Assembly (NCBI GenBank): GCA_028820655.1
Contig: JAPPIK010000021.1
Coordinates: 30,113 to 94,112, forward strand
Length of the DNA stretch: 64,000 nucleotides
DNA from: Candidatus Poribacteria bacterium
Lineage (GTDB): Bacteria > Poribacteria > WGA-4E > JAJDTR01
Reading direction: 5' to 3'
The position numbers were made by a program, and so were the translations under genes. Under the pieces are notes generated by a model that had not been told where the DNA came from, ran no database searches, and was given only the letters and a program-made list of their open reading frames with translations. Positions 1,187 to 57,181 of the stretch are shown in pieces (the stretch's first letter is position 1; the number at the start of each line of letters is the position of its first letter).

Positions 1187-1364
1187 AACGGAATTTCCTT
1201 TTTCAATCCACTCTTTCCTCTACGTATTCTTCCGTCTTTGCTCTGCAACTGTCGCGCTCAAAGGGAGTCAACATTTGTGGATTTGTCCACTTTTTTTTAC
1301 ATTTACGCAAGCGCGTATGTGGCAAGGGTTCAAGCCCTTTTTGAGCCGATTTTGCCGGGATGTC

Positions 1365-1380
1365 GTCAACAAACGTTGAC
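1365..1380. promoter_or_regulatory. perfect palindrome GTCAAC-N4-GTTGAC, candidate enhancer (UAS) for a sigma-54 activator
   Basis: The palindrome has 6 bp arms and lies about 125 bp upstream of the sigma-54 -24/-12 element at 1496. A second palindrome, GTGGA-N4-TCCAC, is at 1277-1290. Confidence 0.3.
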
Positions 1381-1495
1381 TGCCTTTGTAATTCGCCCGC
1401 CTTATTCTCCTCTCCAGCGCAAAAAGTCCCTGAACCCGCACTACGCCTAGCTTCTACGCCTTCACTAACGTCAAATTGATGTCCGTTTTCGGCTT

Positions 1496-1511
1496 TGGCA
1501 TGGGCTTTGCT
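1496..1511 (+). promoter_or_regulatory. putative sigma-54 (-24/-12) promoter TGGCAT-N5-TTGCT
   Basis: GG at 1497-98 and GC at 1509-10 are separated by exactly 10 nt. The match to the TGGCAC-N5-TTGCW consensus is good. It lies 310 nt downstream of the activator gene and upstream of co-directional genes. Confidence 0.45.
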
Positions 1512-1537
1512 CTGATTTGGGTGAAACTTGGGCTGCT

Positions 1538-2353: not shown

Positions 2354-3271
2354 ATGACATACTACAAAACGCTTTGGATAATCGTGATCGTTGCCCTTTT
2401 AGTAGCCGCCCCAACCGCCTCGGCTCAGCCTGACGAAGTCCCTCCCGATGTGTTTGAAGCCGCGGTCGACGGATACCTCTACGCCGATTACCCCGGCGTG
2501 TTCGATGACGCCGAAGGAGATGAAGCCTTTGGCGAAGGCATCACAATAGAAATGTGGATCTATTTCACCGAGGTTCCGCCGGAACGGCAGTCACTCCATT
2601 GGGAACACTGGGCTATCGTCGCCAAGCCGGGCAGTTATTTTATTTCGGCGGCTGGAAGAGCTCTTGAAGATTCCGTCGATTCCAGTCTGCCAGAGGGGCA
2701 TACCAGGCTCATCTTTGCAGTGGAGTCAATTTCCGATGACCATGGCTGTTGCAATCGCGGCGTAGGCGGGATGCCGTTAGAGCCCGGAGAATTCCCCTTA
2801 AAGCGCTGGCTTCATATTGCCATGCAGATCGTGGTGAAAAAAGACGGGACACACCGTACAGAATTTATCGACCGCCACGGTGAAGTAAGAAGGCGATTCT
2901 CGGGGCAGATGGGACGCACGGAGGCGCCGCTATATGTTGGAGGCGCGCCAATGGTAACATTCGAGAACGGCGATACATGGAACAATGACTGGGGCAAACC
3001 GGTGTTCGAATCCATGAAAGGCTACATCGACGAGATTCGTATTTCCAAAGGGTGGCGGTATGTCGCCAAGGGGAATATCCACCCCAAGCGCAACTTCCGC
3101 GTTGATAAACGCACCATAGCGCTCTGGCGCTTTGAGGAAGGTCCCGGCGCACCCTTCTATCGCGATTCTTCGGGCAACGATTATACACTTTTTCCCGGCG
3201 GCTCCCTCGACGTTCAACCACTCAGCAAGATGAACATCACTTGGGGAAGCCTTAAACAGGGTAGGTTTTAG
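2354..3271 (+). CDS. secreted LamG/concanavalin-A-like jelly-roll protein with a shared C-terminal TWGxLK tail (paralog 1)
   Basis: N-terminal signal peptide (LWIIVIVALLVAAPTASAQP). LamG-type signature ALWRFEEGPGAPFYRDSSGNDYTLFPGG. About 80% identical to the adjacent paralog. Ends ...PLSKMNITWGSLKQGRF. Confidence 0.85.
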   Translation: MTYYKTLWIIVIVALLVAAPTASAQPDEVPPDVFEAAVDGYLYADYPGVFDDAEGDEAFGEGITIEMWIYFTEVPPERQSLHWEHWAIVAKPGSYFISAAGRALEDSVDSSLPEGHTRLIFAVESISDDHGCCNRGVGGMPLEPGEFPLKRWLHIAMQIVVKKDGTHRTEFIDRHGEVRRRFSGQMGRTEAPLYVGGAPMVTFENGDTWNNDWGKPVFESMKGYIDEIRISKGWRYVAKGNIHPKRNFRVDKRTIALWRFEEGPGAPFYRDSSGNDYTLFPGGSLDVQPLSKMNITWGSLKQGRF

Positions 3272-3330
3272 CGATGTCAAGATGAAAGGAATAAATCGTG
3301 TCCGCCCCCGCTGTTGCGTGCAGAGGAGGA

Positions 3331-3358
3331 GGGAGGCTTTAGTCTGAGGTTGCCTCCC
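3331..3358 (+). promoter_or_regulatory. conserved 5'-leader stem-loop upstream of LamG paralog 2
   Basis: Stem GGGAGGC/GCCTCCC around the loop tttagtctgaggtt (the loop shares TTTGAGGTTGCC with paralog 1), followed by a CU-rich tract and ATG. Confidence 0.35.
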
Positions 3359-3392
3359 CCTTTCTCCCCAAACCTACTCTCAAGGTAACGCC

Positions 3393-4301
3393 ATGACATA
3401 CTACAAGACGCTACTGTTAATCTTACTCGCTGTCCTTTTTGTTGCTGCAAACACCTTCGCCGAACCTGAAGAAGTCCCTCCCGATGTATTCGAAGCCGCT
3501 GCCGATGGCTACCTCTACGCCGATTACCCCGGCGTGTTCGATGACGCCGAAGGCGATGAAGCCTTCGGCGAAGGCGTCACAATCGAAATGTGGGTCTATT
3601 TCACCGAGATTCCGCCCGACCGGCAGTGGCTCCGCCCGTACAACTGGGTAATCGTCGCAAAGCCCGCCAGCTATTTTATTTCGGCGGCTGGAAGAGCTCT
3701 CGAGGACGGCTTTGATGCCAATATGCCGGAGGGGTTTACCAGGGTCACATTCGCAGTGGAGGAGAACACCGAAGGCTGTTGTGGTCGCGGCGAAGGCGGG
3801 ATGAATTATGATCCCGGCGAGTTCCCCTTAAACCGATGGCTTCATATTGCCTTCCAGCTCGTCGTGAAAAAAAGCGGCACACACGACACGACATTTATAG
3901 ACCGCTTCGGCGAGGGAAGCGGGCGTTTTAGCGCACCGATGGGGCGCACCGAGGCGCCGCTATACGTCGGTGGCGCGCCAAAGGTAACATTCGAAAACGG
4001 CGATAAATGGAACGACGACTGGGGGCGCTCGGAGTTCGTATCCATGAAAGGCTACATTGATGAGATTCGCATTTCGAAGGGATGGCGGTATGTCGCCAAG
4101 GGGAATATCCACCCCAAACGCAACTTTCGCGTCGATAAACGCACCATCGCGCTCTGGCGCTTTGAGGAAGGTCCCGGCGCACCCTTCTACCGCGATTCTT
4201 CGGGCAACGACTATACACTCTTCCCCGGTGGCTCCCTCGACGTTCAACCGCTCAGCAAGATGAACATCACCTGGGGAAGTCTAAAACAGGGTGGGTTTTA
4301 G
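3393..4301 (+). CDS. secreted LamG/concanavalin-A-like jelly-roll protein with a shared C-terminal TWGxLK tail (paralog 2)
   Basis: Tandem duplicate of 2354..3271, with a unit length of about 1039 bp. It has a signal peptide and ends ...PLSKMNITWGSLKQGGF. Confidence 0.85.
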   Translation: MTYYKTLLLILLAVLFVAANTFAEPEEVPPDVFEAAADGYLYADYPGVFDDAEGDEAFGEGVTIEMWVYFTEIPPDRQWLRPYNWVIVAKPASYFISAAGRALEDGFDANMPEGFTRVTFAVEENTEGCCGRGEGGMNYDPGEFPLNRWLHIAFQLVVKKSGTHDTTFIDRFGEGSGRFSAPMGRTEAPLYVGGAPKVTFENGDKWNDDWGRSEFVSMKGYIDEIRISKGWRYVAKGNIHPKRNFRVDKRTIALWRFEEGPGAPFYRDSSGNDYTLFPGGSLDVQPLSKMNITWGSLKQGGF

Positions 4302-4303
4302 CT

Positions 4304-4687
4304 ATGCCAAAATGGAAACTATATCTCGTCGAAGCCGCTCCCATCGCCATCGGCGTCGTTTTCCTCCTCGCGATAACTGCCGCTCCCAACATTTCCCTTC
4401 CTGATCGGAAAGACACATTGGAAGCCATCGTCAAAGTACATTTTTGGAGAGAAATCGCCTTTCAGCGGAATATCCCCAAACTGCTCCAACAGCTTTCACA
4501 CGCCAACCTGAAGAAATCAACACAAACAAGCTTTAATCCCGTCCGGTCCCCAGTTTCCACCGATGTATCACGAGCGCATATCATGACAGTCATCAACATT
4601 GACATCAAAAACTCCGATGAAAACCCCATTGAAAAAACCGATTGGCAGACGCAATCGACGCTTTGCGAGAAAACGGCGCACGGTTGA
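4304..4687 (+). CDS. hypothetical protein with an N-terminal membrane anchor
   Basis: 127 aa. The ATG is 2 nt after the LamG2 stop. One N-terminal hydrophobic helix (APIAIGVVFLLAITAAP). Confidence 0.4.
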   Translation: MPKWKLYLVEAAPIAIGVVFLLAITAAPNISLPDRKDTLEAIVKVHFWREIAFQRNIPKLLQQLSHANLKKSTQTSFNPVRSPVSTDVSRAHIMTVINIDIKNSDENPIEKTDWQTQSTLCEKTAHG

Positions 4688-4721: not shown

Positions 4722-5216
4722 ATGCTCAACATACCGTCTAGCCGCACTGTCGTCGCCATCATGGGCTTAATCGCAATCCTATACGCTTACGCGCAAAGCG
4801 CCGGGGAGTTACAACCGCTGTTTCTCATTCCTGCCACATTCCTTGCCGGTGCCGCGGCTTGTTACCTTTGGAAAACCGTTGTCCACACTTCACTGGTTTC
4901 CTACGCCGCTCATGCCGGCGCCCTCGGGTTCCTTTGGGCGCTTTATCTGATTTACCGCGAAGATTTTTTAGAAAGGCTGCCGCCCTTCAGCGCGAAAGTG
5001 GCTCCCATTACCCTCTTCTTCTTTCTGGCGTTTAGCGTATTGGTCCTAATTCGCCGTCTATGCCGGCAGGTACGCCCCATGCGTAAGTGGGCGGCCGTGC
5101 TGTTAGCGCTCTACCCCGTTTCTCTGGATTATCGTTACCCTAGCAGTAGAAGATACATCAGACCAAGAATTGCACGGTTTCCACTTCGGGGCGGTCATAG
5201 AAAAAATCAATGTTAA
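4722..5216 (+). CDS. hypothetical small 4-TM integral membrane protein
   Basis: 164 aa with four hydrophobic helices. No recognisable catalytic motif. Confidence 0.4.
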   Translation: MLNIPSSRTVVAIMGLIAILYAYAQSAGELQPLFLIPATFLAGAAACYLWKTVVHTSLVSYAAHAGALGFLWALYLIYREDFLERLPPFSAKVAPITLFFFLAFSVLVLIRRLCRQVRPMRKWAAVLLALYPVSLDYRYPSSRRYIRPRIARFPLRGGHRKNQC

Positions 5217-5667
5217 GGGGATTTCATTGCCTTACCAAATCTACCGCTACCATGCGTCAAAGCGCACCGTTGCGTTGCCAGAGTTGGAACTAAAAAGCAT
5301 CTGCCTCAGTGTAAATGACACTCAATCTTCCGAGATTGAACGAACGGATTTGGTGGAGATTCCTATGCCCGTGTCGGCAGTTCTAGAGGTTATTGATAAG
5401 AAAGGCAGAACACAACATGTCGTACCGCCCACCGTACGATTCGATGGAATACCGCTTGAACCGGAAAAATCGAACCACCGATCAACCGAGCAAATTGAGA
5501 ATTCCATAGGAGATGCGATGGAATCTGATAGAAAACTTGCAGACGGACAACTCATCATAATTTCCAACGACGGCCAGCCCTACGATTGGGACGTGTTCTA
5601 TCTCCTGCCCTCCGCGTCTCATACCCTAGACAATCGCCGTGTAGATAACGAGGGATCAACCAACTGA
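5170..5667 (+). CDS. hypothetical protein
   Basis: 165 aa ORF overlapping the previous ORF by 47 nt. No domain recognised. Confidence 0.25.
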   Translation: MHGFHFGAVIEKINVKGISLPYQIYRYHASKRTVALPELELKSICLSVNDTQSSEIERTDLVEIPMPVSAVLEVIDKKGRTQHVVPPTVRFDGIPLEPEKSNHRSTEQIENSIGDAMESDRKLADGQLIIISNDGQPYDWDVFYLLPSASHTLDNRRVDNEGSTN

Positions 5668-13846: not shown

Positions 13847-14638
13847 ATGGACATCGCTTGGTGGCAATTTCCCTTGGCGGGTAGTCTAATCATCCTTGTT
13901 GTCCTTGCAATAACGTTTGGAGTGATTAGGGCACGGCAGTGCAGCCGACCAACGGCAACCGGCAATGATGCTTCCGAGCAGTCTAATGCGCTCGCCAGAG
14001 AATTGGTACATGAAATCCGGAATCCTCTCAATAGCGTCGGCTTAAATCTTCAACTCATAGAGGAGGATTTGGCGACTGTCGAATCCCGGAAAGCCAGCGA
14101 AGTGTTGAAGCGAACGCGCCGTATTCGCATTGAAATAGAGCGCTTGAATCAGATTCTGACCGACTTTCGCCGTTTCACCGGTTTGCCGCCCCTCTCTCTT
14201 CAGAAGTGCAACCTTGGCGCGTTAATTGTCGAAGTTCTCGAATTCACCGAACCTGAAGCGCAAAGCCGCAATATCACGGTCGTCCGCGAGCTTCAAGATC
14301 TTCCTTCAATCGAACTCGATCCGGATCAGTTTAAGCAGGCGCTATGGAACCTAATCATCAACGCAACTCAAGCGATGGAAACTGGCGGCACATTGACTAT
14401 ACACGCGTCTGCATTGAACGGCAATATCAAACTTGACGTACGAGACACGGGAGTGGGCATCTCTCCGGACATTGCCGATAGAATGTTCGATCTCTTTTTC
14501 CACACGAAGGAAAATGGCACCGGTGTCGGTCTAGCGATTGTAAAAAGAGTCATAGAAGGGCACGGTGGAAGCGTTAGTGTCGATAGTCTGCCAAATCAAG
14601 GTGCCACGGTGTCGATCGTGATTCCCATTAATAGATAA
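13847..14638 (+). CDS. sensor histidine kinase (single N-terminal TM, HisKA plus HATPase_c)
   Basis: H-box ELVHEIRNPLNSV. G-box GTGVGLAIVKRVIEGHGGSV. Confidence 0.8.
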   Translation: MDIAWWQFPLAGSLIILVVLAITFGVIRARQCSRPTATGNDASEQSNALARELVHEIRNPLNSVGLNLQLIEEDLATVESRKASEVLKRTRRIRIEIERLNQILTDFRRFTGLPPLSLQKCNLGALIVEVLEFTEPEAQSRNITVVRELQDLPSIELDPDQFKQALWNLIINATQAMETGGTLTIHASALNGNIKLDVRDTGVGISPDIADRMFDLFFHTKENGTGVGLAIVKRVIEGHGGSVSVDSLPNQGATVSIVIPINR

Positions 14639-14767
14639 TCAATTATATTCAGCACCGGTGGGAAAATCAGTATCCAATTGGAGGAAGTTCCCATTCTACA
14701 CTCATTGCATGAGTGATTTCCCAACGACTTTTTACGACCCATCGCCCCACTCTACGATACCTTATCG

Positions 14768-16237
14768 TTGTGGGACGCTAGTTATTCGGGCGATGAACAT
14801 TATGAACTCGAGCTGCTTGGGTTTGAATCAAAACATGGAGTGAGGACCAAATTGAATCCCCGAATTCTCATAGTGGACGACGATTCATCCGGTCTTGAAG
14901 CCACGGCTGAAGTGTTGAAGCGTGAAGGGTACGACCTCTTCACCGCGACCGGCGCGCGCGCCGCGATTCAGATTCTGGACGCGGAAAACGTCGATGTTGT
15001 GATTACCGACGAAAAGATGCCAGACATGAGTGGTATCGAGTTGTTGAAGTATATTCTCGCCAATCATCCTTATACACAGGTTATTCTCCTTACCGCTTAT
15101 GGCAGCATAGATAGCGCTGTCGAAGCCATCCAGACCGGCGCGGTCTCATACCGAGAGAAGCCAATCAGAATCGAATTACTTCGCCAAACGGTTAAGAGCG
15201 CACTGGAGAGGCGTACGCTTCATCTCCAAAACGTAAATCTACGCCAGCAACTTGATGGGAAGTTCGGTTTCGCGAACATTACCGGTACATCGAAGCCGAT
15301 GCAGGATCTTTTTGGGATGGTTCGGCGCATTGCCCCGACAAATGTAACCGTCTTGATCACGGGAGAAAACGGTGTTGGAAAGGAACTCATTGCCAAAGCC
15401 GTTCACAATCATAGTCGGCGCAAAGACAGATTGTTCAGAGACCTTAACTGCGGGGCGATTCCTCGGGAATTGGTGGAAGGCGAACTCTTTGGTCATGAAA
15501 AGGGAGCCTTTACAAGTGCGACCGCCCGCAGATTTGGCGTATTTGAACAAGCGGATGGTGGAACTCTGTTCCTTGACGAGATTGGGGAAATGACGCCCGA
15601 AACGCAGGTGAGGTTTCTCCGCGTGTTAGAGACCCAGGAATTTAGGCGGCTGGGCGGCGACAAGAACATCCGAGTTGATGTCCGCGTTATCGCTGCGTCG
15701 AATATGGATTTAAATGCCGCAGTCAGAAACGGTTCGTTTCGGGAAGATCTTTACCATCGAATTAACCGGTTCGCGCTGCACGTGCCCCCTCTCCGAGAGC
15801 GGCGAGAGGATATCCCGCTGCTTGCCAGTCAATTCCTACGAGAATTTAGCAAGGAACACGATCTGCCGGTGACGGACATCTCCCCCGATGCTATGAATCG
15901 TCTCAAATATGCGGATTGGCCCGGCAATGTACGTCAACTGCGGAATGCCATTGAAACCGGAGTGATCCTGTCGACAACCGGGGCAGTTCAGCTCTGGGAC
16001 CTTCCGCCGGAAATCCAGGCGGGACCTCCCGCTCTTCCTCCGGCGTCCAACGATTCTGAGGAAATTGTTGGGAGAGTGGGAATGACGATGGACGAGATTG
16101 AAAAGGAAGCCATTCGCAAAACCCTAGCGGACACGGGAGGGAATAAGACCCAAGCTGCAAAGATTCTCAAGATGGGGTTACGCACACTTCATCGTAAAGT
16201 GCAATCTTACGGTCTGGAAAATGAGGAGACTTGGTGA
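14768..16237 (+). CDS. sigma-54-dependent two-component response regulator (NtrC family)
   Basis: REC domain (ILIVDDD...D), AAA+ sigma-54 domain ([20 protein letters not shown]) and a C-terminal Fis HTH. The true start is probably GTG 14840 or TTG 14852, the latter with a GAGG-N7 RBS. Confidence 0.85.
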   Translation: MWDASYSGDEHYELELLGFESKHGVRTKLNPRILIVDDDSSGLEATAEVLKREGYDLFTATGARAAIQILDAENVDVVITDEKMPDMSGIELLKYILANHPYTQVILLTAYGSIDSAVEAIQTGAVSYREKPIRIELLRQTVKSALERRTLHLQNVNLRQQLDGKFGFANITGTSKPMQDLFGMVRRIAPTNVTVLITGENGVGKELIAKAVHNHSRRKDRLFRDLNCGAIPRELVEGELFGHEKGAFTSATARRFGVFEQADGGTLFLDEIGEMTPETQVRFLRVLETQEFRRLGGDKNIRVDVRVIAASNMDLNAAVRNGSFREDLYHRINRFALHVPPLRERREDIPLLASQFLREFSKEHDLPVTDISPDAMNRLKYADWPGNVRQLRNAIETGVILSTTGAVQLWDLPPEIQAGPPALPPASNDSEEIVGRVGMTMDEIEKEAIRKTLADTGGNKTQAAKILKMGLRTLHRKVQSYGLENEETW

Positions 16238-43722: not shown

Positions 43723-44505
43723 ATGAAACATCTTGTTTTTACAATGGCTGCCTTAATGATTTTTGCGGTTGCATCTTTAACTGTGGTCGCACAGCAAATC
43801 GTATTGGACGAGAACTTCGATAACGTCCCGAATGGTGAACTACCGGATGGCTGGACAGTTCTCTACAACGACACTTATAATGGATTCGATGATGCGGCTC
43901 AAAAACAGGTGCCGTGTGACCCGCCGTGTCCCGGTTGGCAAGTATTGGACGGGGTATTGGATTCCGGTAATGGCGACCATGACAGAGAAGCCCTGTTTAT
44001 CATGGTTGGGAGTGGCTGGGAACAGATCACTGTCCAAGTCGATATGGTGCGGGCGCAGGGCACAGGGTATATGGGAACTGCGACCAACGTCCAGCCAAAC
44101 GGCGACCGATACGACTGCAGATTCATGACCGGCAACCCGGGCAATCTCCTGAATGCCGAAGGAACGAATGACTTTGACCGACGCGGCGCCAATCCCGTGC
44201 TATGGTTAGTTCAACGCGTGAATGGAAAGTTTACGGTTCTCGCTCAAGCAGACAACGTCGCCGACTTGGAGCGCGGACCGTTTCATCCGATGGAGATGAC
44301 GGCCAACGGCGCCAACTTGAGTTGTACCGCCGCAGGTGCTACTGTGGAGGCTACGGCGTTGGATGCGCTTCCCGCTGGCGGTGTCGGTTTCCATAACGGC
44401 GAATACGGTGCGTTCTATGACAGCGTGTTGGTGACGGCCGTTGCGACATCGGTAGATCCGAAAAGTAAATTGGCGGCAACCTGGGGACAGATTAAGCAGC
44501 AATAG
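43723..44505 (+). CDS. secreted jelly-roll (LamG/glucanase-like) protein with the shared C-terminal TWGxIK tail
   Basis: ATG at 43723 with an AAAGGAG RBS. Signal peptide MKHLVFTMAALMIFAVASLTVVAQQ. Ends ...SVDPKSKLAATWGQIKQQ. Confidence 0.75.
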   Translation: MKHLVFTMAALMIFAVASLTVVAQQIVLDENFDNVPNGELPDGWTVLYNDTYNGFDDAAQKQVPCDPPCPGWQVLDGVLDSGNGDHDREALFIMVGSGWEQITVQVDMVRAQGTGYMGTATNVQPNGDRYDCRFMTGNPGNLLNAEGTNDFDRRGANPVLWLVQRVNGKFTVLAQADNVADLERGPFHPMEMTANGANLSCTAAGATVEATALDALPAGGVGFHNGEYGAFYDSVLVTAVATSVDPKSKLAATWGQIKQQ

Positions 44506-51473: not shown

Positions 51474-52472
51474 ATGAAAAACGTCAGCCATTATATCAGC
51501 AGATACCTGCTTCTATTGTTGTTGGGGTTACTGTTTGCGTCGTACAGCGCGGCGCAGGGATTTGTGCCGAGAATCGTCTTTGCATCGAACCGTGACGGGG
51601 ACTGGGACATTTACTCCATGGATGAGAACGGGGATAACGTGGTCCAGCTCACCAACAACCCGGCATCCGATCGCTTTCCCGGTTGCTCGCCGAACGGGAG
51701 AAGGATAGCGTTCGAATCAGAGCGCGGCGTTACGCCTGACCTGTATGTGATGGACAGCGATGGCAGTAACGTGGTAAGACTCACCCAAGACAATTTTTTA
51801 GAAGGCCGCCCCAGTTGGACGCCGGAGGGAACGAAGATTGCCTTTTCATCTTTCCGTTTTGCCGTTGGCAACTCGGAAATCTACGTGATGGACGGCGACG
51901 GAAATAACCTGATAAATTTGACAAACCACAAGTGGCAGGACGTTAGGCCGAGTTGGTCGCCAGATGGCAGCAAGATGGCGTTTACCTCCATGCGTGATGG
52001 CCGCTTCAATACTCCCAGGCATATTTTCGTGATGAATGCGGATGGAACGGAAAGGCGCAATCTCACTGCCGATACCCAACTAACGAACAGTCGGAATCCT
52101 AGTTGGTCACCGGATGGACGCAAGATTGCTTTTGACTCGCGGCGCCTCTTCCGAGATGGCCAGCGTGATGACATTTTCGTGATCACCGCTAAAGGAGAAG
52201 AGTTAGAAAGGCTTACGAACAAGGAGGGTGCCAATATTCAACCCGTCTATTCGCCGGATGGTACCAATATCGCCTTTGTGTCAACGCGTGATGGAGGTTA
52301 TAACATATATTTGATGGACACCAACGGGAAGAACGTTGTCAGACTCACGAAAACTCCGCATGGTATTGAAAACCTAAATCCCGCATGGCCTCACGGCGCA
52401 TTAGCAGTCAATCCCAGCGGAAAGTTACCGATATCTTGGGGAGAACTCAAGCGCACCCACAACCCGCGATGA
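51474..52472 (+). CDS. secreted PD40/TolB-like beta-propeller protein with the shared C-terminal tail
   Basis: Signal peptide and PD40 blades. Ends ...SGKLPISWGELKRTHNPR. Confidence 0.85.
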   Translation: MKNVSHYISRYLLLLLLGLLFASYSAAQGFVPRIVFASNRDGDWDIYSMDENGDNVVQLTNNPASDRFPGCSPNGRRIAFESERGVTPDLYVMDSDGSNVVRLTQDNFLEGRPSWTPEGTKIAFSSFRFAVGNSEIYVMDGDGNNLINLTNHKWQDVRPSWSPDGSKMAFTSMRDGRFNTPRHIFVMNADGTERRNLTADTQLTNSRNPSWSPDGRKIAFDSRRLFRDGQRDDIFVITAKGEELERLTNKEGANIQPVYSPDGTNIAFVSTRDGGYNIYLMDTNGKNVVRLTKTPHGIENLNPAWPHGALAVNPSGKLPISWGELKRTHNPR

Positions 52473-53828: not shown

Positions 53829-54032
53829 GTGGGTACTCGCAGCGCATTTGCAACAGTGGCATTGGTTAGTACGACCGCTCTGGCAATGACGTTGCTTGTC
53901 GCTCCAGATGCCAAAGCCGTTTGGTGTCCAGCGGGTTGCGGCCAAGGACAATTTTGTTGTTGGTATGGCGGAGGACACTATTTCTGCCGGGGGCTGGCGC
54001 CAGAGCCTGGCTATAAGTGCTGGAGGGTGTAA
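53829..54032 (+). CDS. small secreted Cys/Trp/Gly-rich peptide (bacteriocin- or defensin-like precursor)
   Basis: GTG at 53829 (or TTG at 53775). Predicted signal peptide MGTRSAFATVALVSTTALAMTLLVAPDAKA with an AxA cleavage site. Mature peptide VWCPAGCGQGQFCCWYGGGHYFCRGLAPEPGYKCWRV (37 aa, 6 Cys). A perfect hairpin follows. Confidence 0.4.
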   Translation: MGTRSAFATVALVSTTALAMTLLVAPDAKAVWCPAGCGQGQFCCWYGGGHYFCRGLAPEPGYKCWRV

Positions 54033-54109: not shown

Positions 54110-55117
54110 ATGAAATTCGAATTCATTAAGACGACTCTTCCCATCCTTAAGAACAGTTTGTATCTTTTGCTGACCGGTTTGTTGCTCGCGTCGTTAAACT
54201 CGGTGCGGGCGGTTGCGGACACGATTGCTTTCAGTTCAAATAAAAGTATCTACACTATGAATACTGATGGGACAAATCTCATCAAACTTGCTCCGGGCGG
54301 TACCCCCTCTTGGTCGCCGGATGGGACAAGGATTGTGTATTCCTTCGGACTCGGCAGGTTTCGCGGTGATGTCTCCGACATTTACATCATGGATGCCAAC
54401 GGTGCGAACGGCGTGAATCTCACCAAAGGACGGCACAAGGTTAACTCACTGCCTGCTTGGTCGCCCGACGGTACGAAGATAGCTTTTAGGTCCAATCGTG
54501 ATGGGAATTTCGAAATATATGTGATGAACGCCGACGGGAAGAATCCAATCAACCTCACACTGCACCCAGATAGCGACAGTTGGCCGACGTGGTCACCGGA
54601 CGGGAGGCAAATCGCCTTCGAGTCGTTGCAAGTTGCCGCCGGAGTGCTCAATCATTGCGATATATTTGTCATGGATGCCGACGGCGCCAATCGGACCAAT
54701 GTTACCCAAAACCCCCGCGCATACAATCGGACACCTGATTGGTCGCCGGACGGAAGCAAAATAGCGTTCGCGGCGGTGCGAAATGTCAATCGTGTAGACC
54801 TCTGGAATTCAGATGTTGACATCTTTGTGATGGATGCCGACGGAACTCATCCCGTAAGACTCACTGAAGATGCGCGGTTCAATTGGTTCCCAAGTTGGTC
54901 ACCGGATGGCAAAAGGATGGTCTTTGTTCGAGGAACGCAAGACGATGTCACCGACTGCGACATCTGTATCATGAACGCGGATGGAACCGGTCTTGAAAAC
55001 CTCACCCAAACCCCCGGTGTGGGCGAGTTCCACCCTTCTTGGAAACCAACTCCGTTTTCGGTATCATCACGAGGAAAGTTGACCGTTGTATGGGGAACGG
55101 TGAAACAGAATCACTAG
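54110..55117 (+). CDS. secreted PD40/TolB-like beta-propeller protein with the shared C-terminal tail (tandem unit 1 of 3)
   Basis: 335 aa. Signal peptide and PD40 blades. Ends ...SVSSRGKLTVVWGTVKQNH. Confidence 0.85.
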   Translation: MKFEFIKTTLPILKNSLYLLLTGLLLASLNSVRAVADTIAFSSNKSIYTMNTDGTNLIKLAPGGTPSWSPDGTRIVYSFGLGRFRGDVSDIYIMDANGANGVNLTKGRHKVNSLPAWSPDGTKIAFRSNRDGNFEIYVMNADGKNPINLTLHPDSDSWPTWSPDGRQIAFESLQVAAGVLNHCDIFVMDADGANRTNVTQNPRAYNRTPDWSPDGSKIAFAAVRNVNRVDLWNSDVDIFVMDADGTHPVRLTEDARFNWFPSWSPDGKRMVFVRGTQDDVTDCDICIMNADGTGLENLTQTPGVGEFHPSWKPTPFSVSSRGKLTVVWGTVKQNH

Positions 55118-55141
55118 CTATGGAGGCGTGACGAACGAGAA

Positions 55142-56149
55142 ATGAAATCCGATCCATTAGGAAGACTCTCCCCATCATTAAAATGCATCGTATTCCAATT
55201 GATGGCCGGTGTATTATTCACGTCCCTAAATTCGGCATGGGCTGTTGGGGGCACGATTGCTTTCACTTCACAGGGGAATATCTACACCATGGCAACCGAT
55301 GGGACAAATCTCATCGAACTGACTCAGGGTAGCAGCCCCTCCTGGTCGCCGGATGGGACAAAGATCGCGTATTCCTTCGGACTCGGCAGGTTTCGCGGTG
55401 ATGTCACCGACATTTACATCATGGATGCAAACGGCGCGAACCTTGTGAACCTTACCCAAGGACGGAAGAAAGTCAACATGTCGCCCGTTGTGTCGCCGGA
55501 TGGGAAAAGAATTGCGTTTGCCTCATACCGCGATGCCAATTACGAAATTTACGTGATGGATGCTGATGGGAAGAATCCGAAAAACCTTACTCTGCATCTG
55601 GATGACGATACCTCCCCGGCTTGGTCACCGGACGGGACAAAGATTGCCTTCGGGTCAAGGCAGGTTAGAGAAGACATATTGACTCACTCTGACATATTCG
55701 TGATGAATGCCGATGGCGCCAATCGAACCAATATAACCCAAAATCCCCGTGCATACAATATCACGCCCAGTTGGTCGCCGGTCGGAGACAAAATTGCCTA
55801 CGCAGCATTTTCAAATGTCGATCATGTAGGCCCGTTAAACGCTAACTTGGACATCTCTGTGATGAATGCCGATGGAACTGATGCCGTCAGACTCACTGAA
55901 GATGCACGTATGAATTTGTCCCCAAGTTGGTCGCCGGATGGTAAAAGGATTGTCTTCGTGCGAGCACACGAAGACGATCCCATATACTGCGACATCTACG
56001 CAATGAACGCGGATGGAACCGGTCTCGTAAACCTCACCCAAACCCCTATTGTGGGCGAGTTCGACCCTTCTTGGAAACCTACTCCGTTTTCGGTATCATC
56101 ACGAGGCAGGTTGCCCGTCGTGTGGGGAACGGTGAAACAGAAACGATAG
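55142..56149 (+). CDS. secreted PD40/TolB-like beta-propeller protein with the shared C-terminal tail (tandem unit 2 of 3)
   Basis: 335 aa. Ends ...SVSSRGRLPVVWGTVKQKR. Its start is exactly 1032 bp after the previous start, with a conserved spacer gctatggaggcgtgacgaacgagaaATGAAAT. Confidence 0.85.
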   Translation: MKSDPLGRLSPSLKCIVFQLMAGVLFTSLNSAWAVGGTIAFTSQGNIYTMATDGTNLIELTQGSSPSWSPDGTKIAYSFGLGRFRGDVTDIYIMDANGANLVNLTQGRKKVNMSPVVSPDGKRIAFASYRDANYEIYVMDADGKNPKNLTLHLDDDTSPAWSPDGTKIAFGSRQVREDILTHSDIFVMNADGANRTNITQNPRAYNITPSWSPVGDKIAYAAFSNVDHVGPLNANLDISVMNADGTDAVRLTEDARMNLSPSWSPDGKRIVFVRAHEDDPIYCDIYAMNADGTGLVNLTQTPIVGEFDPSWKPTPFSVSSRGRLPVVWGTVKQKR

Positions 56150-56173
56150 CTATGGAGGCGTGACGAACGAGAA

Positions 56174-57181
56174 ATGAAATACCGTCGATTAGGAAGACTC
56201 GCCTTATCTTTAAAAGGCATCCTTTTCGTTTTGATAATCGGTGTATTATTCACGTCCTTAGATTTGGTACGGGCGGTTGGGGACACGATTGCTTTCACTT
56301 CACAGGGGAATATCTACACTATAGACACTGATGGGACAAATCTGAAAAAACTTACTCGAGGCTATAATCCCTCTTGGTCGCCTGACGGGGCAAAGCTCGT
56401 GTTTTCCTTCGGTCTCGGCAGGTTTCGCGGTGACGTCACCGACATTTACATCATGGATGCGAACGGTGGGAACCGCTTGAATCTTACCAAAGGACGCCAC
56501 AAACAGAATGCCCTGCCTGCTTGGTCGCCCGATGGGACAAAGATAGCTTTTGAGTCCAACCGTGATGGGAATTCCGAAATCTATGTGATGAATGCCGAGG
56601 GGAAGAATCCCAAAAACCTCACGCTGCACCTCGATGACGATACGTGCCCGACGTGGTCACCGGATGGGACAAAGATTGCCTTTTGGTCAAGGCAAGTCGC
56701 TGCCGGGGTGCTGAGTCTTTCGGATATATTTGTAATGGATGCCGACGGCTCCGATCGGATCAATATCACCCAAAATCCCCGTGCCTCCAATAGGACGCCA
56801 AGTTGGTCGCCGGACGGAAGCAAAATCGCTTACACGGCAGTGCGAAATGTCAATCGTGTAGACCCTTGGAATGCAAACTTGGACATCGTTGTGATGAATG
56901 CCGACGGAACTCATCCCGTCAGACTCACTGAAGATGGACGTGCAAATTGGCTCCCGAGTTGGTCACCGGATGGCAAAAGGATCGTATTCGAACGAACGAT
57001 GCTCAACGATCCCATTTACGCCGACATCTATGTGATGAACGCGGATGGAACCGGTCTTGTAAACCTCACCCCAACCCCTCTTGTGCCCGAGTGGGACCCT
57101 TCTTGGAGACCGACTCCGTTTTCCGTATCATCACGAGGCAAAATGCCAACCCGATGGGCGGAGATAAAAGAAAGGCGCTAA
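56174..57181 (+). CDS. secreted PD40/TolB-like beta-propeller protein with a degenerate shared tail (tandem unit 3 of 3)
   Basis: 335 aa. Ends ...SVSSRGKMPTRWAEIKERR (WG changed to WA). Its start is again exactly 1032 bp after the previous start. Confidence 0.85.
   Translation: MKYRRLGRLALSLKGILFVLIIGVLFTSLDLVRAVGDTIAFTSQGNIYTIDTDGTNLKKLTRGYNPSWSPDGAKLVFSFGLGRFRGDVTDIYIMDANGGNRLNLTKGRHKQNALPAWSPDGTKIAFESNRDGNSEIYVMNAEGKNPKNLTLHLDDDTCPTWSPDGTKIAFWSRQVAAGVLSLSDIFVMDADGSDRINITQNPRASNRTPSWSPDGSKIAYTAVRNVNRVDPWNANLDIVVMNADGTHPVRLTEDGRANWLPSWSPDGKRIVFERTMLNDPIYADIYVMNADGTGLVNLTPTPLVPEWDPSWRPTPFSVSSRGKMPTRWAEIKERR

Follow-up and report, generated by a model that had tools for sequence, protein, structure and literature searches.

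In Enterobacteria, sigma-54 promoters with a neighboring gene for a bacterial enhancer-binding protein (bEBP) include those of the NorR-norVW, PspF-pspA, ZraR-zraP, and PrpR-prpBCDE pairs. The RocR/AcoR-type regulators of Bacillus have a PAS-AAA+-HTH_8 architecture. Among the bEBPs that depart from the GAFTGA loop, NtrC of Rhodobacter works with sigma-70 and lacks this motif, and GAYTGA variants are active. Here, we analyzed a stretch of 64,000 nucleotides (nt) from a Candidatus Poribacteria bacterium (contig JAPPIK010000021.1, positions 30,113 to 94,112), referred to as the window. Directly behind a bEBP gene that is truncated by the window border, a sigma-54-type -24/-12 element at 1496-1511 faces two genes for LamG-like secreted proteins. 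A preliminary description of this DNA had proposed that the activator controls these genes through the promoter and two upstream palindromes. We consider it likely that the element is a genuine sigma-54 (RpoN)-dependent promoter that, together with ~310 nt of upstream regulatory region, serves an activator-driven LamG operon.

The locus resembles the classical pairs in its GG-N10-GC promoter close to TGGCAC-N5-TTGCW, in an AAA+ activator with a C-terminal Fis-type helix-turn-helix (HTH) that is encoded beside the target, and in dyad-symmetric sites 100-250 bp 5' of the promoter, which are here known from sequence alone. It differs from them in that the activator gene precedes its target in the same orientation instead of being divergent, in that the host is an uncultured sponge symbiont with tandem arrays of secreted-protein genes as targets, and in that the cis-region behaves like a cassette copied and recombined between loci. 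The order of PAS, sigma-54 interaction domain, AAA lid, and HTH_8 is shared with RocR and AcoR, whereas there is no close sequence relationship and the poribacterial copy has GAHTGA. Like the other GAFTGA-variant bEBPs, the activator departs at the aromatic position of the loop; unlike in those proteins, the residue is His in an otherwise intact loop, and the gene has a canonical sigma-54 promoter next to it. The target proteins, in turn, differ from Laminin_G_3/concanavalin-A-like lectin proteins in staying under the Pfam threshold and in carrying an (S/T)WGx(L/I)K tag. By its sequence, the locus is an ordinary textbook bEBP/sigma-54 switch, with the activator encoded beside its target, in a poorly studied phylum. 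Its only unusual points are the cassette-like mosaic, a very slowly evolving intergenic gap, and the His variant of the loop.

The sigma-54-type promoter and its conserved module

The features that bear on the promoter and its control are as follows (window coordinates, strand, description, and basis).

1-1186, + strand: 3' part (394 codons) of the gene for a 515-aa PAS-AAA+-HTH_8 bEBP; the gene starts 362 nt before the window (Pfam)
431-448, + strand: L1 loop GAHTGA, normally GAFTGA, with the His codon CAC at 437-439 (homolog comparison)
1267-1282, no strand: distal candidate enhancer site GTCAACATTTGTGGAT, with an imperfect dyad TCAAC-N4-GTGGA at 1268-1281 (invariant run 1267-1279)
1277-1298, + strand: palindrome 1, GTGGA-TTTG-TCCAC (1277-1290), followed by T8 (terminator scan)
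1365-1380, no strand: proximal candidate enhancer site, palindrome 2, GTCAAC-AAAC-GTTGAC (longest invariant block)
1427-1511, + strand: promoter core common to all cassette copies, including CTGAACCC (1430-1437) and AAATTGATG (1474-1482) 5' of the -24 element (71-84% identity)
1496-1511, + strand: sigma-54 -24/-12 element TGGCATGGGCTTTGCT (matrix scores and conservation with a variable spacer)

The element reads TGGCAT-GGGCT-TTGCT, with GG at 1497-1498 and GC at 1509-1510, so that the position and the GG-N10-GC spacing within a TGGCAC-N5-TTGCW-like sequence were confirmed as originally described. The pattern TGGCA-N6-TTGCW was found twice in the window against 0.33 matches expected. With a rough consensus matrix of our own, the site reached 17.6 bits out of a maximum of 18.9 (runner-up in the window, 14.0), a score expected at 0.03 sites per window or ~3 per 6 Mb. 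We also derived an empirical matrix from 178 published sigma-54 promoters (S2 table, PMC12316311), which originate from E. coli (EcoCyc) and from Desulfovibrio and Desulfomicrobium (RegPrecise) and are applied here to a poribacterial host. The element scored 19.4 bits with this matrix, at the 89th percentile of the sites used for training (their median being 16.4), and outscored every other site in the 64-kb window. Its score was reached in 1.7% of 300 shuffled windows (1.7-3.7% over the scorings made). At the scale of the window, the match is thus the top score of a position-specific scan and stands above the background. The + strand of the gap at 1187-1537 yielded no sigma-70-like promoter. 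Judged by sequence, 1496-1511 has every defining feature of a sigma-54 promoter that can be assessed in silico.

Loci for comparison were gathered via the LamG-like protein and via activator homologs, and the relatives are named Candidatus Poribacteria bacterium. Beyond the window, the element recurred in 13 loci (L006, L007, L008, L013, L014, L015, L016, L018, L019, L020, L041, L042, and L043), which come from at least nine source contigs; one of the loci (L014) holds two promoter copies. Among the genomes with the cassette are two complete Poribacteria chromosomes, OZ244829.1 and OZ246960.1. TGGCAY, the TGC core, and the GG-N10-GC spacing were kept in 13 of these 13 loci, and the -12 pentamer was TTGCT in 11, the others having ATGCT (L042) and ATGCG (L008). 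The 5-nt spacer, in contrast, occurred in ten different versions (GGGCT, GGGGT, GGACT, GAATT, AGGGC, AGGCT, AGAGT, AGGAT, AGGTT, and GGTTA). The contact elements are therefore conserved independently of the spacer, which points to selection on the sigma-54 contacts and not on the sequence as a whole. Together with the scores, this bears out the claim that a sigma-54 promoter faces the LamG-like genes. The surrounding core at 1427-1511 was 71-84% identical in all promoter copies, whether linked to a bEBP gene or to LamG-like genes. A degenerate second core, TATGGCCCGGAAAATGCTA, was observed at L018:9249-9342 (15.4 bits), 55 nt before a 247-aa gene, indicating that the cassette has been tandemly duplicated in that genome.

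Two other matches of the window were taken as chance. The second exact TGGCA-N6-TTGCT match, at 53881, scored 12.7 bits and lies inside the signal-peptide coding part of a small open reading frame (ORF). This ORF (53829-54032, 67 codons) encodes a signal peptide and a Cys/Gly/Trp-rich peptide (...VWCPAGCGQGQFCCWYGGGHYFCRG...) and is located just 5' of three tandem 335-aa PD40 genes (54110-57181). The second-best match to the empirical matrix, ATTGGCACCCTCCTTGTTC at 52215-52233 (- strand, 16.3 bits), is antisense within a PD40 gene.

In eight of the loci (L008, L014, L018, L019, L020, L041, L042, and L043), a homolog of the PAS-bEBP gene is followed by a homologous intergenic region and then by the promoter, ~300-320 nt past the stop codon. 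On this sequence evidence, the activator gene, the intergenic region, and the promoter are a conserved module in nine loci, the window included. A sigma-54-type site was also detected 330-400 nt 3' of the bEBP gene in L021 and L022, which are distant relatives. The closest relationship was observed for L018, L019, L020, and L041, in which an orthologous activator precedes an intergenic region 79-85% identical to window 1187-1511 and the promoter is located ~310 nt after the activator stop, the same distance as in the window. The genes 3' of the promoter differ in these four loci and encode a 232-258-aa and a 113-129-aa protein, joined in L019, L020, and L041 by lipoprotein-like proteins of 328-368 aa, which form tandem arrays in L020 and L041. 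Another five loci (L006, L007, L013, L015, and L016) have no activator gene 5' of the promoter, and there the promoter is followed by a leader and by 2-6 LamG-like genes in tandem.

A comparison by segments showed that window 1187-1426 matches only activator-linked regions (80-85%), whereas for 1512-1790 the only match is to the LamG leader, at 85% identity to L006 and L015. Since the matches split at 1427-1511, the window is a mosaic whose parts meet in the promoter core common to all copies; in this genome, the upstream half of the cassette would have been joined, at that core, to the leader of a LamG operon. The same activator-LamG arrangement is present in L014. Fragments of the activator C terminus were observed 3' of the LamG operon at L014:13357-13615 and L009:2821-3177, and in L014 the fragment is followed by the second copy of the promoter cassette, after the operon. 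These fragments are apparently remnants of the recombination event by which the operon came to lie 3' of the activator gene. In genome OZ244829.1, the DNA 5' of the unlinked LamG operon L006 resembles that found 620 kb away 3' of paralog P0163 (L043; 86% identity over 270 nt), and the type-A region of the same genome (L018) matches L006 over the core only. This suggests that LamG operons elsewhere borrow the regulatory region of a paralog.

The 325-nt gap between activator gene and promoter was 79-93% identical between orthologs, as compared to 75-87% for the activator gene overall and 60-80% for its third codon positions. This is illustrated by the window and L041, for which the values are 85% in the gap and 60% at third positions. 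The variable columns of the gap were distributed over the three phases as 33/33/29, that is, without 3-nt periodicity, and no frame was open in all sequences, which ruled out a hidden ORF in 1187-1511. As the gap changes more slowly than third codon positions and has no signs of coding, it can be regarded as functional non-coding DNA.

The activator and the downstream transcription unit

The full-length activator and its PAS domains were read from a 310-kb scaffold (ENA ERZ23495530, ROBB21-1 scaffold_28), and the same DNA was found in a second ENA sample, a Logan assembly, and the NCBI metagenome-assembled genome (MAG) GCA_028823835.1. ORF 2-1186 matches Sigma54_activat (PF00158; E = 1.4e-54), AAA_lid_14, and HTH_8 (E = 6.5e-9), which bears out the claim that the promoter lies immediately 3' of a sigma-54 activator gene. 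Walker A (GETGVGKE) and Walker B (LFLDEIG) are present and the HTH appears intact, so that the protein has both the AAA+ sigma-54 interaction domain and the C-terminal HTH of a bEBP. The Phe or Tyr of the GAFTGA motif is replaced in GAHTGA, and assignment to the family is therefore based on the domain match. The aromatic position was F or Y in 119 of the 120 homologs listed, and the only H belongs to the same protein in the NCBI MAG (P0184). The change from Phe to His needs two nucleotide substitutions and was seen in independent assemblies (two from ENA, in addition to the MAG protein P0184). The nearest relatives of the activator are all poribacterial proteins, followed by response-regulator bEBPs, and Poribacteria genomes contain several paralogs of it.

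Three bEBP genes are located on the scaffold, namely, the PAS-bEBP gene, one of a 626-aa response-regulator type just upstream, and one of NtrC type. According to PMC12316311, sigma-54 always co-occurs with enhancer-binding proteins. The presence of sigma-54 in the organism thus has good, if indirect, sequence support from the bEBP genes of the scaffold and from a second conserved site. This site, TGGCACACTTTGTGCT (L001:456-471, 18.4 bits), follows the 626-aa bEBP gene upstream of the window and belongs to a second class, TGGCACA-N4-TRTGCT, with 18.4-19.6 bits in L001:456-471, L018:1222, L018:6628, and L014:4759. A second-class site is located 370-610 nt 5' of the PAS-bEBP gene in L018 (a further copy) and in L014 (the only copy), which hints at a cascade in which one bEBP may control the next. 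In the window, a histidine kinase gene (HisKA, HATPase_c) and a gene for a 489-aa NtrC-type response-regulator bEBP with the loop GAFTSA occupy 13847-16237; no strong sigma-54 site was seen near the latter.

The predicted transcription unit comprises the following features.

1522-1788, + strand: predicted 5' leader of ~267 nt with an open 75-codon frame at 1538-1765 (85% nucleotide identity to L006 and L015)
1789-2277, + strand: secreted-protein gene (p145), ~160 aa (169 aa in L014), with an in-frame TAA at 1813-1815 in the signal peptide (comparison with L014)
2292-2323, + strand: strong stem-loop with a 13-bp stem and no T run, before the first LamG-like gene (folding)
2354-3271, + strand: LamG-like secreted protein 1, 305 aa, with a signal peptide and the C-terminal tag ...ITWGSLKQGRF (Laminin_G_3, homologs)
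3393-4301, + strand: LamG-like secreted protein 2, 302 aa, 79% identical to copy 1 and with the same tag
4304-4687, + strand: 127-aa membrane-anchored protein (p127), which follows the LamG array in most related loci (tblastn synteny)
4722-5667, + strand: two ORFs (164 aa, 4722-5216; 165 aa, 5170-5667) that are one frameshifted gene for a 279-aa membrane protein (alignment)

The leader or p145, two to six LamG-like genes, p127, and the 279-aa gene repeatedly occur in this order, all on one strand and separated by short gaps. Both LamG-like genes are intact and end in the same tag, so that the promoter does read toward a tagged LamG pair, as initially proposed. Copy 1 matched Laminin_G_3 (PF13385) over residues 60-230 at E = 0.022, with 15.4 bits against a cut-off of 27.6, and no match to PF13385 was obtained for copy 2. 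Homologs at 45-53% identity carry this domain, and with such a weak direct match the label LamG-like is one of transitive homology. Across the window, six secreted-protein ORFs, two of them LamG-like, two PD40 beta-propellers, and two other proteins, end in (S/T)WGx(L/I)K 3-9 residues before the stop (3240-3271 and 4270-4301, and the ORFs ending at 44505, 45736, 52472, and 53594). The motif looks like a C-terminal sorting tag.

The preliminary description had placed a small Cys-rich ORF and a 145-aa ORF before the LamG pair. The former is the 75-codon frame, which stays open in five loci. Its differences are spread evenly over the codon positions (11/14/9), with a synonymous-to-nonsynonymous ratio of ~6:21 (single-change codons). 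Several of its cysteines are replaced in relatives, most of the stretch is deleted internally in L014, and its product had one match among 1.8 billion representative proteins. It was therefore rejected as a confident gene, and 1538-1765 is, by these sequence comparisons, probably transcribed leader rather than a gene. The leader matched no Rfam family and showed no covariation among five close sequences. In the case of the 145-aa ORF, there is a gene, of which the ORF is the part from GTG 1840 onward; the gene starts at ATG 1789 and its signal peptide is interrupted. The window reads MTPRSFTQ*YGC..., as compared to MTTRRFTQQYGY... in L014, which has CAA (Gln) at the position of the TAA. This codon was present in four independent assemblies and must accordingly be a real nonsense mutation or a recoded stop. 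L014, L008, and L009 have an intact 279-aa gene, which in the window is split by an extra G at ~5126-5127; this insertion was verified on the one scaffold only.

Folding of 2278-2353, which contains the stem-loop, gave -31.6 kcal/mol (z = -3.15). A related structure was observed in 3320-3370, and related loci have a hairpin with a CCUCC...GGAGG pairing 3' of it, which would occlude the ribosome-binding site.

Candidate enhancer sites

Both palindromes of the preliminary description exist at the distances given for them, ~125 and ~210 bp upstream of the promoter. The center of palindrome 2 is 125 bp 5' of the -24 GG (~-149 from the predicted start) and that of palindrome 1 ~214 bp upstream of the promoter. 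The center of the overlapping distal dyad is at ~-247 from the predicted start. Dyad-symmetric sites are thus present within the range of ~80-250 bp upstream of the promoter, as would be expected by chance in a single sequence.

Comparison of the orthologous regions revealed three longest invariant runs, namely, 1364-1380 (17 nt, covering all of palindrome 2), 1267-1279, and 1283-1294; the latter two, in the area of palindrome 1, correspond to the halves of the distal site. Palindrome 2 is perfect in L018, L019, L020, and L041 and invariant in all five orthologous regions, and its first half, GTCAAC, also opens the distal block. The 16-mers GTCAACATTTGTGGAT (1267-1282) and GTCAACAAACGTTGAC (1365-1380), which are 98 bp apart, match at 11 of 16 positions. 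A search for the regulon found no further copies of GTCAAC-N4-GTTGAC in the 64-kb window. Palindrome 1 has one arm mutated in L019 and is absent from the L014, L008, and L006 types. Aligned to TCAAC-ATTT-GTGGA of the window are dyads of a different sequence, the perfect GCGAC-AAAT-GTCGC in L014 and CCGAC-ATTT-GTCGC, with the dyad CGAC-N4-GTCG, in L042; relative to the distal dyad of the window, their outer positions are changed on both arms with retention of the dyad symmetry.

These site versions were compared to the recognition helix of the linked activator. The helix KQALNNRL(N/S)RA was found in five loci, all of which have kept both sites, whereas the helix RQALHKRLRRA is associated in two loci (L014 and L042) with (G/C)CGAC-N4-GTCGC, and L043 has a third type of helix and a third version of the site. 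L041, L042, and L043 were the last loci retrieved and served as a test of this co-variation. L041 has the window-type helix at just 71% overall protein identity, and both of its sites are perfect. A metagenome scan with the C-terminal part of the activator returned only distant relatives (up to 54% identity), which were of little use for co-variation. These comparisons support the view that the neighboring activator binds both palindrome 2 and the dyad at 1268-1281. Of the proposal that the two palindromes are enhancer sites, the part concerning palindrome 2, which is invariant in five regions and changes with the recognition helix, is credible. Palindrome 1 is not kept outside the closest group; as originally defined it is doubtful, and the overlapping dyad at 1268-1281 would fit better.

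Assessment of the proposed switch and its significance

In the reading that we favor, RNA polymerase with sigma-54 would bind the -24 GG and the -12 GC to form a closed complex. A PAS-sensor bEBP of the adjacent family would bind the dyad at 1365-1380 via its Fis-type HTH, and probably also 1267-1282. Upon a trigger received by the PAS domains, it would oligomerize, reach the polymerase by DNA looping, and open the promoter at the expense of ATP. The predicted transcript would start at ~1522 and extend through the ~267-nt leader, the gene at 1789-2277, and the two LamG-like genes to the membrane-protein genes ending at ~5667.

Several observations weigh against a functional activator-driven switch at this locus. 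The transcription start and the extent of the operon are deduced from sequence. Neither a regular expression for the RpoN box nor tblastn with an E. coli RpoN query detected an rpoN gene in ~315 kb of Poribacteria DNA, which amounts to a few percent of a genome. The palindromes are not enriched: in the 309-nt region, one with 6-bp arms (spacer 0-12) was observed against 1.05 expected, 58% of the real 309-nt tiles of the window hold at least one, and those with 5-bp arms numbered 6 against 4.3 expected (P = 0.29). Being at chance level in a single sequence, the palindromes derive all their support from the comparison across genomes. There, the statistics of the invariant runs are no more than suggestive, with P = 0.09 for a longest run of at least 18 and P = 0.07 for three runs of at least 12 nt (1.08 expected). 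Palindromes 1 and 2 are not kept in LamG-type regions, L014, or L008, and the three helix classes and three site versions come from 8 linked loci in which the gene and the adjoining DNA are co-inherited, which confounds their co-variation. Finally, the GAHTGA change is, by analogy, probably disabling for the activator of this genome, and the nonsense codon in p145 and the frameshift in the 279-aa gene fit a locus that is no longer fully used.

This last point leads to the best-surviving alternative, in which the promoter and enhancer are real for the lineage and the GAHTGA activator cannot activate here, so that the operon either is silent and in decay or depends on a paralogous PAS-bEBP acting in trans. 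We regard this as quite possible, at somewhat less than even chances. His occurs at the sigma-54-contacting Phe in this species only, against 119 homologs with F or Y, and the two-nucleotide change recurs in several assemblies. According to PMC2941729, which cites Zhang et al. 2009, Tyr is the sole replacement of Phe that still permits activation in PspF. The p145 nonsense codon in four assemblies and the frameshift point in the same direction, and a paralog could step in, given the several bEBP paralogs of Poribacteria and the unlinked LamG operons elsewhere that are apparently served in trans. Set against this, the activator is intact apart from its loop (Walker A/B and HTH), as are the promoter, the two candidate sites, and both LamG genes; the effect of His in the PAS-bEBP family is predicted by analogy with PspF, and the frameshift was verified on one scaffold. 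Because of the GAHTGA activator and the two damaged operon genes, the switch may be weakened or decaying here, or may be served by a paralogous activator. The claim that the activator controls the downstream operon is therefore strengthened for the module, by its conservation in nine loci, and is doubtful for this organism, given the His at the sigma-54-contacting position.

A second alternative concerns the upstream region only. Palindrome 1 with its T8 could be the intrinsic terminator of the activator gene, leaving the proximal dyad as the only site bound by the activator. The terminator scan flags palindrome 1 at ~90 nt past the activator stop, and the hairpin with its T-rich tail is kept in L018, L020, and L041. 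We nevertheless consider this rather unlikely, as the hairpin is weak (-5.7 kcal/mol, z = -0.2, no better than shuffles), broken in L019, and absent in L014 and L042, where a different dyad without a T run is centered 8 bp upstream.

A more far-reaching version of the favored reading holds that Poribacteria carry a portable sigma-54 promoter cassette, consisting of the enhancer region and the core from -95 to -12, which has been repeatedly recombined to put arrays of tagged secreted proteins under different PAS activators, and that the GAHTGA activator is a functional His variant. If this were true, the window would capture a cassette swap with its junction at the promoter core, and the function of GAHTGA would contradict the PspF rule of Tyr as the sole replacement of Phe. 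We assign little probability to this combined claim.

We consider it very unlikely that most transcription of the LamG genes comes from read-through of the activator gene or starts at a sigma-70 promoter in the leader, with the sigma-54 element in a minor role. There is indeed no strong terminator between the activator gene and the operon, and a sigma-70-like TTGACA-N18-TAACAT (10 of 12 matches) is located at 1742-1771, just 5' of the p145 start codon. Sigma-70-like matches are, however, not significantly enriched in the region (8 against 4.6 ± 2.0), the -10 hexamer of the site at 1742 is not kept in L006 or L015, and the invariant -24/-12 elements with their free spacer would be left unexplained in loci without an upstream activator. 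Chance resemblance, or a block that serves a small RNA or a hidden small protein, is hardly credible: although ~3 sites of such a score are expected by chance per 6-Mb genome and the constraint covers the whole gap and not the promoter alone, both sigma-54 contact elements are kept while the spacer drifts, the position after the activator gene is fixed, a 350-nt gap would by the per-position probability contain a site of this score with a chance of ~1e-4, and the gap has no Rfam match, codon periodicity, or shared ORF.

We thus retain the reading of a sigma-54-dependent promoter with an upstream regulatory region. A literature search returned nothing relevant on sigma-54 or rpoN in Poribacteria, and the present assignment is apparently the first concrete cis-regulatory assignment in this phylum. 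A non-coding gap that evolves more slowly than synonymous sites, and a natural His in the GAFTGA loop beside two damaged operon genes, will be of interest to specialists. The candidate binding sites and the promoter coordinates can be used for metatranscriptome work. Poribacteria are uncultured sponge symbionts with genomes rich in expanded families of secreted proteins, and several of their tandem arrays are located behind sigma-54 promoters paired with PAS-sensor activators, which suggests that these arrays may be switched by specific signals instead of being expressed constitutively.

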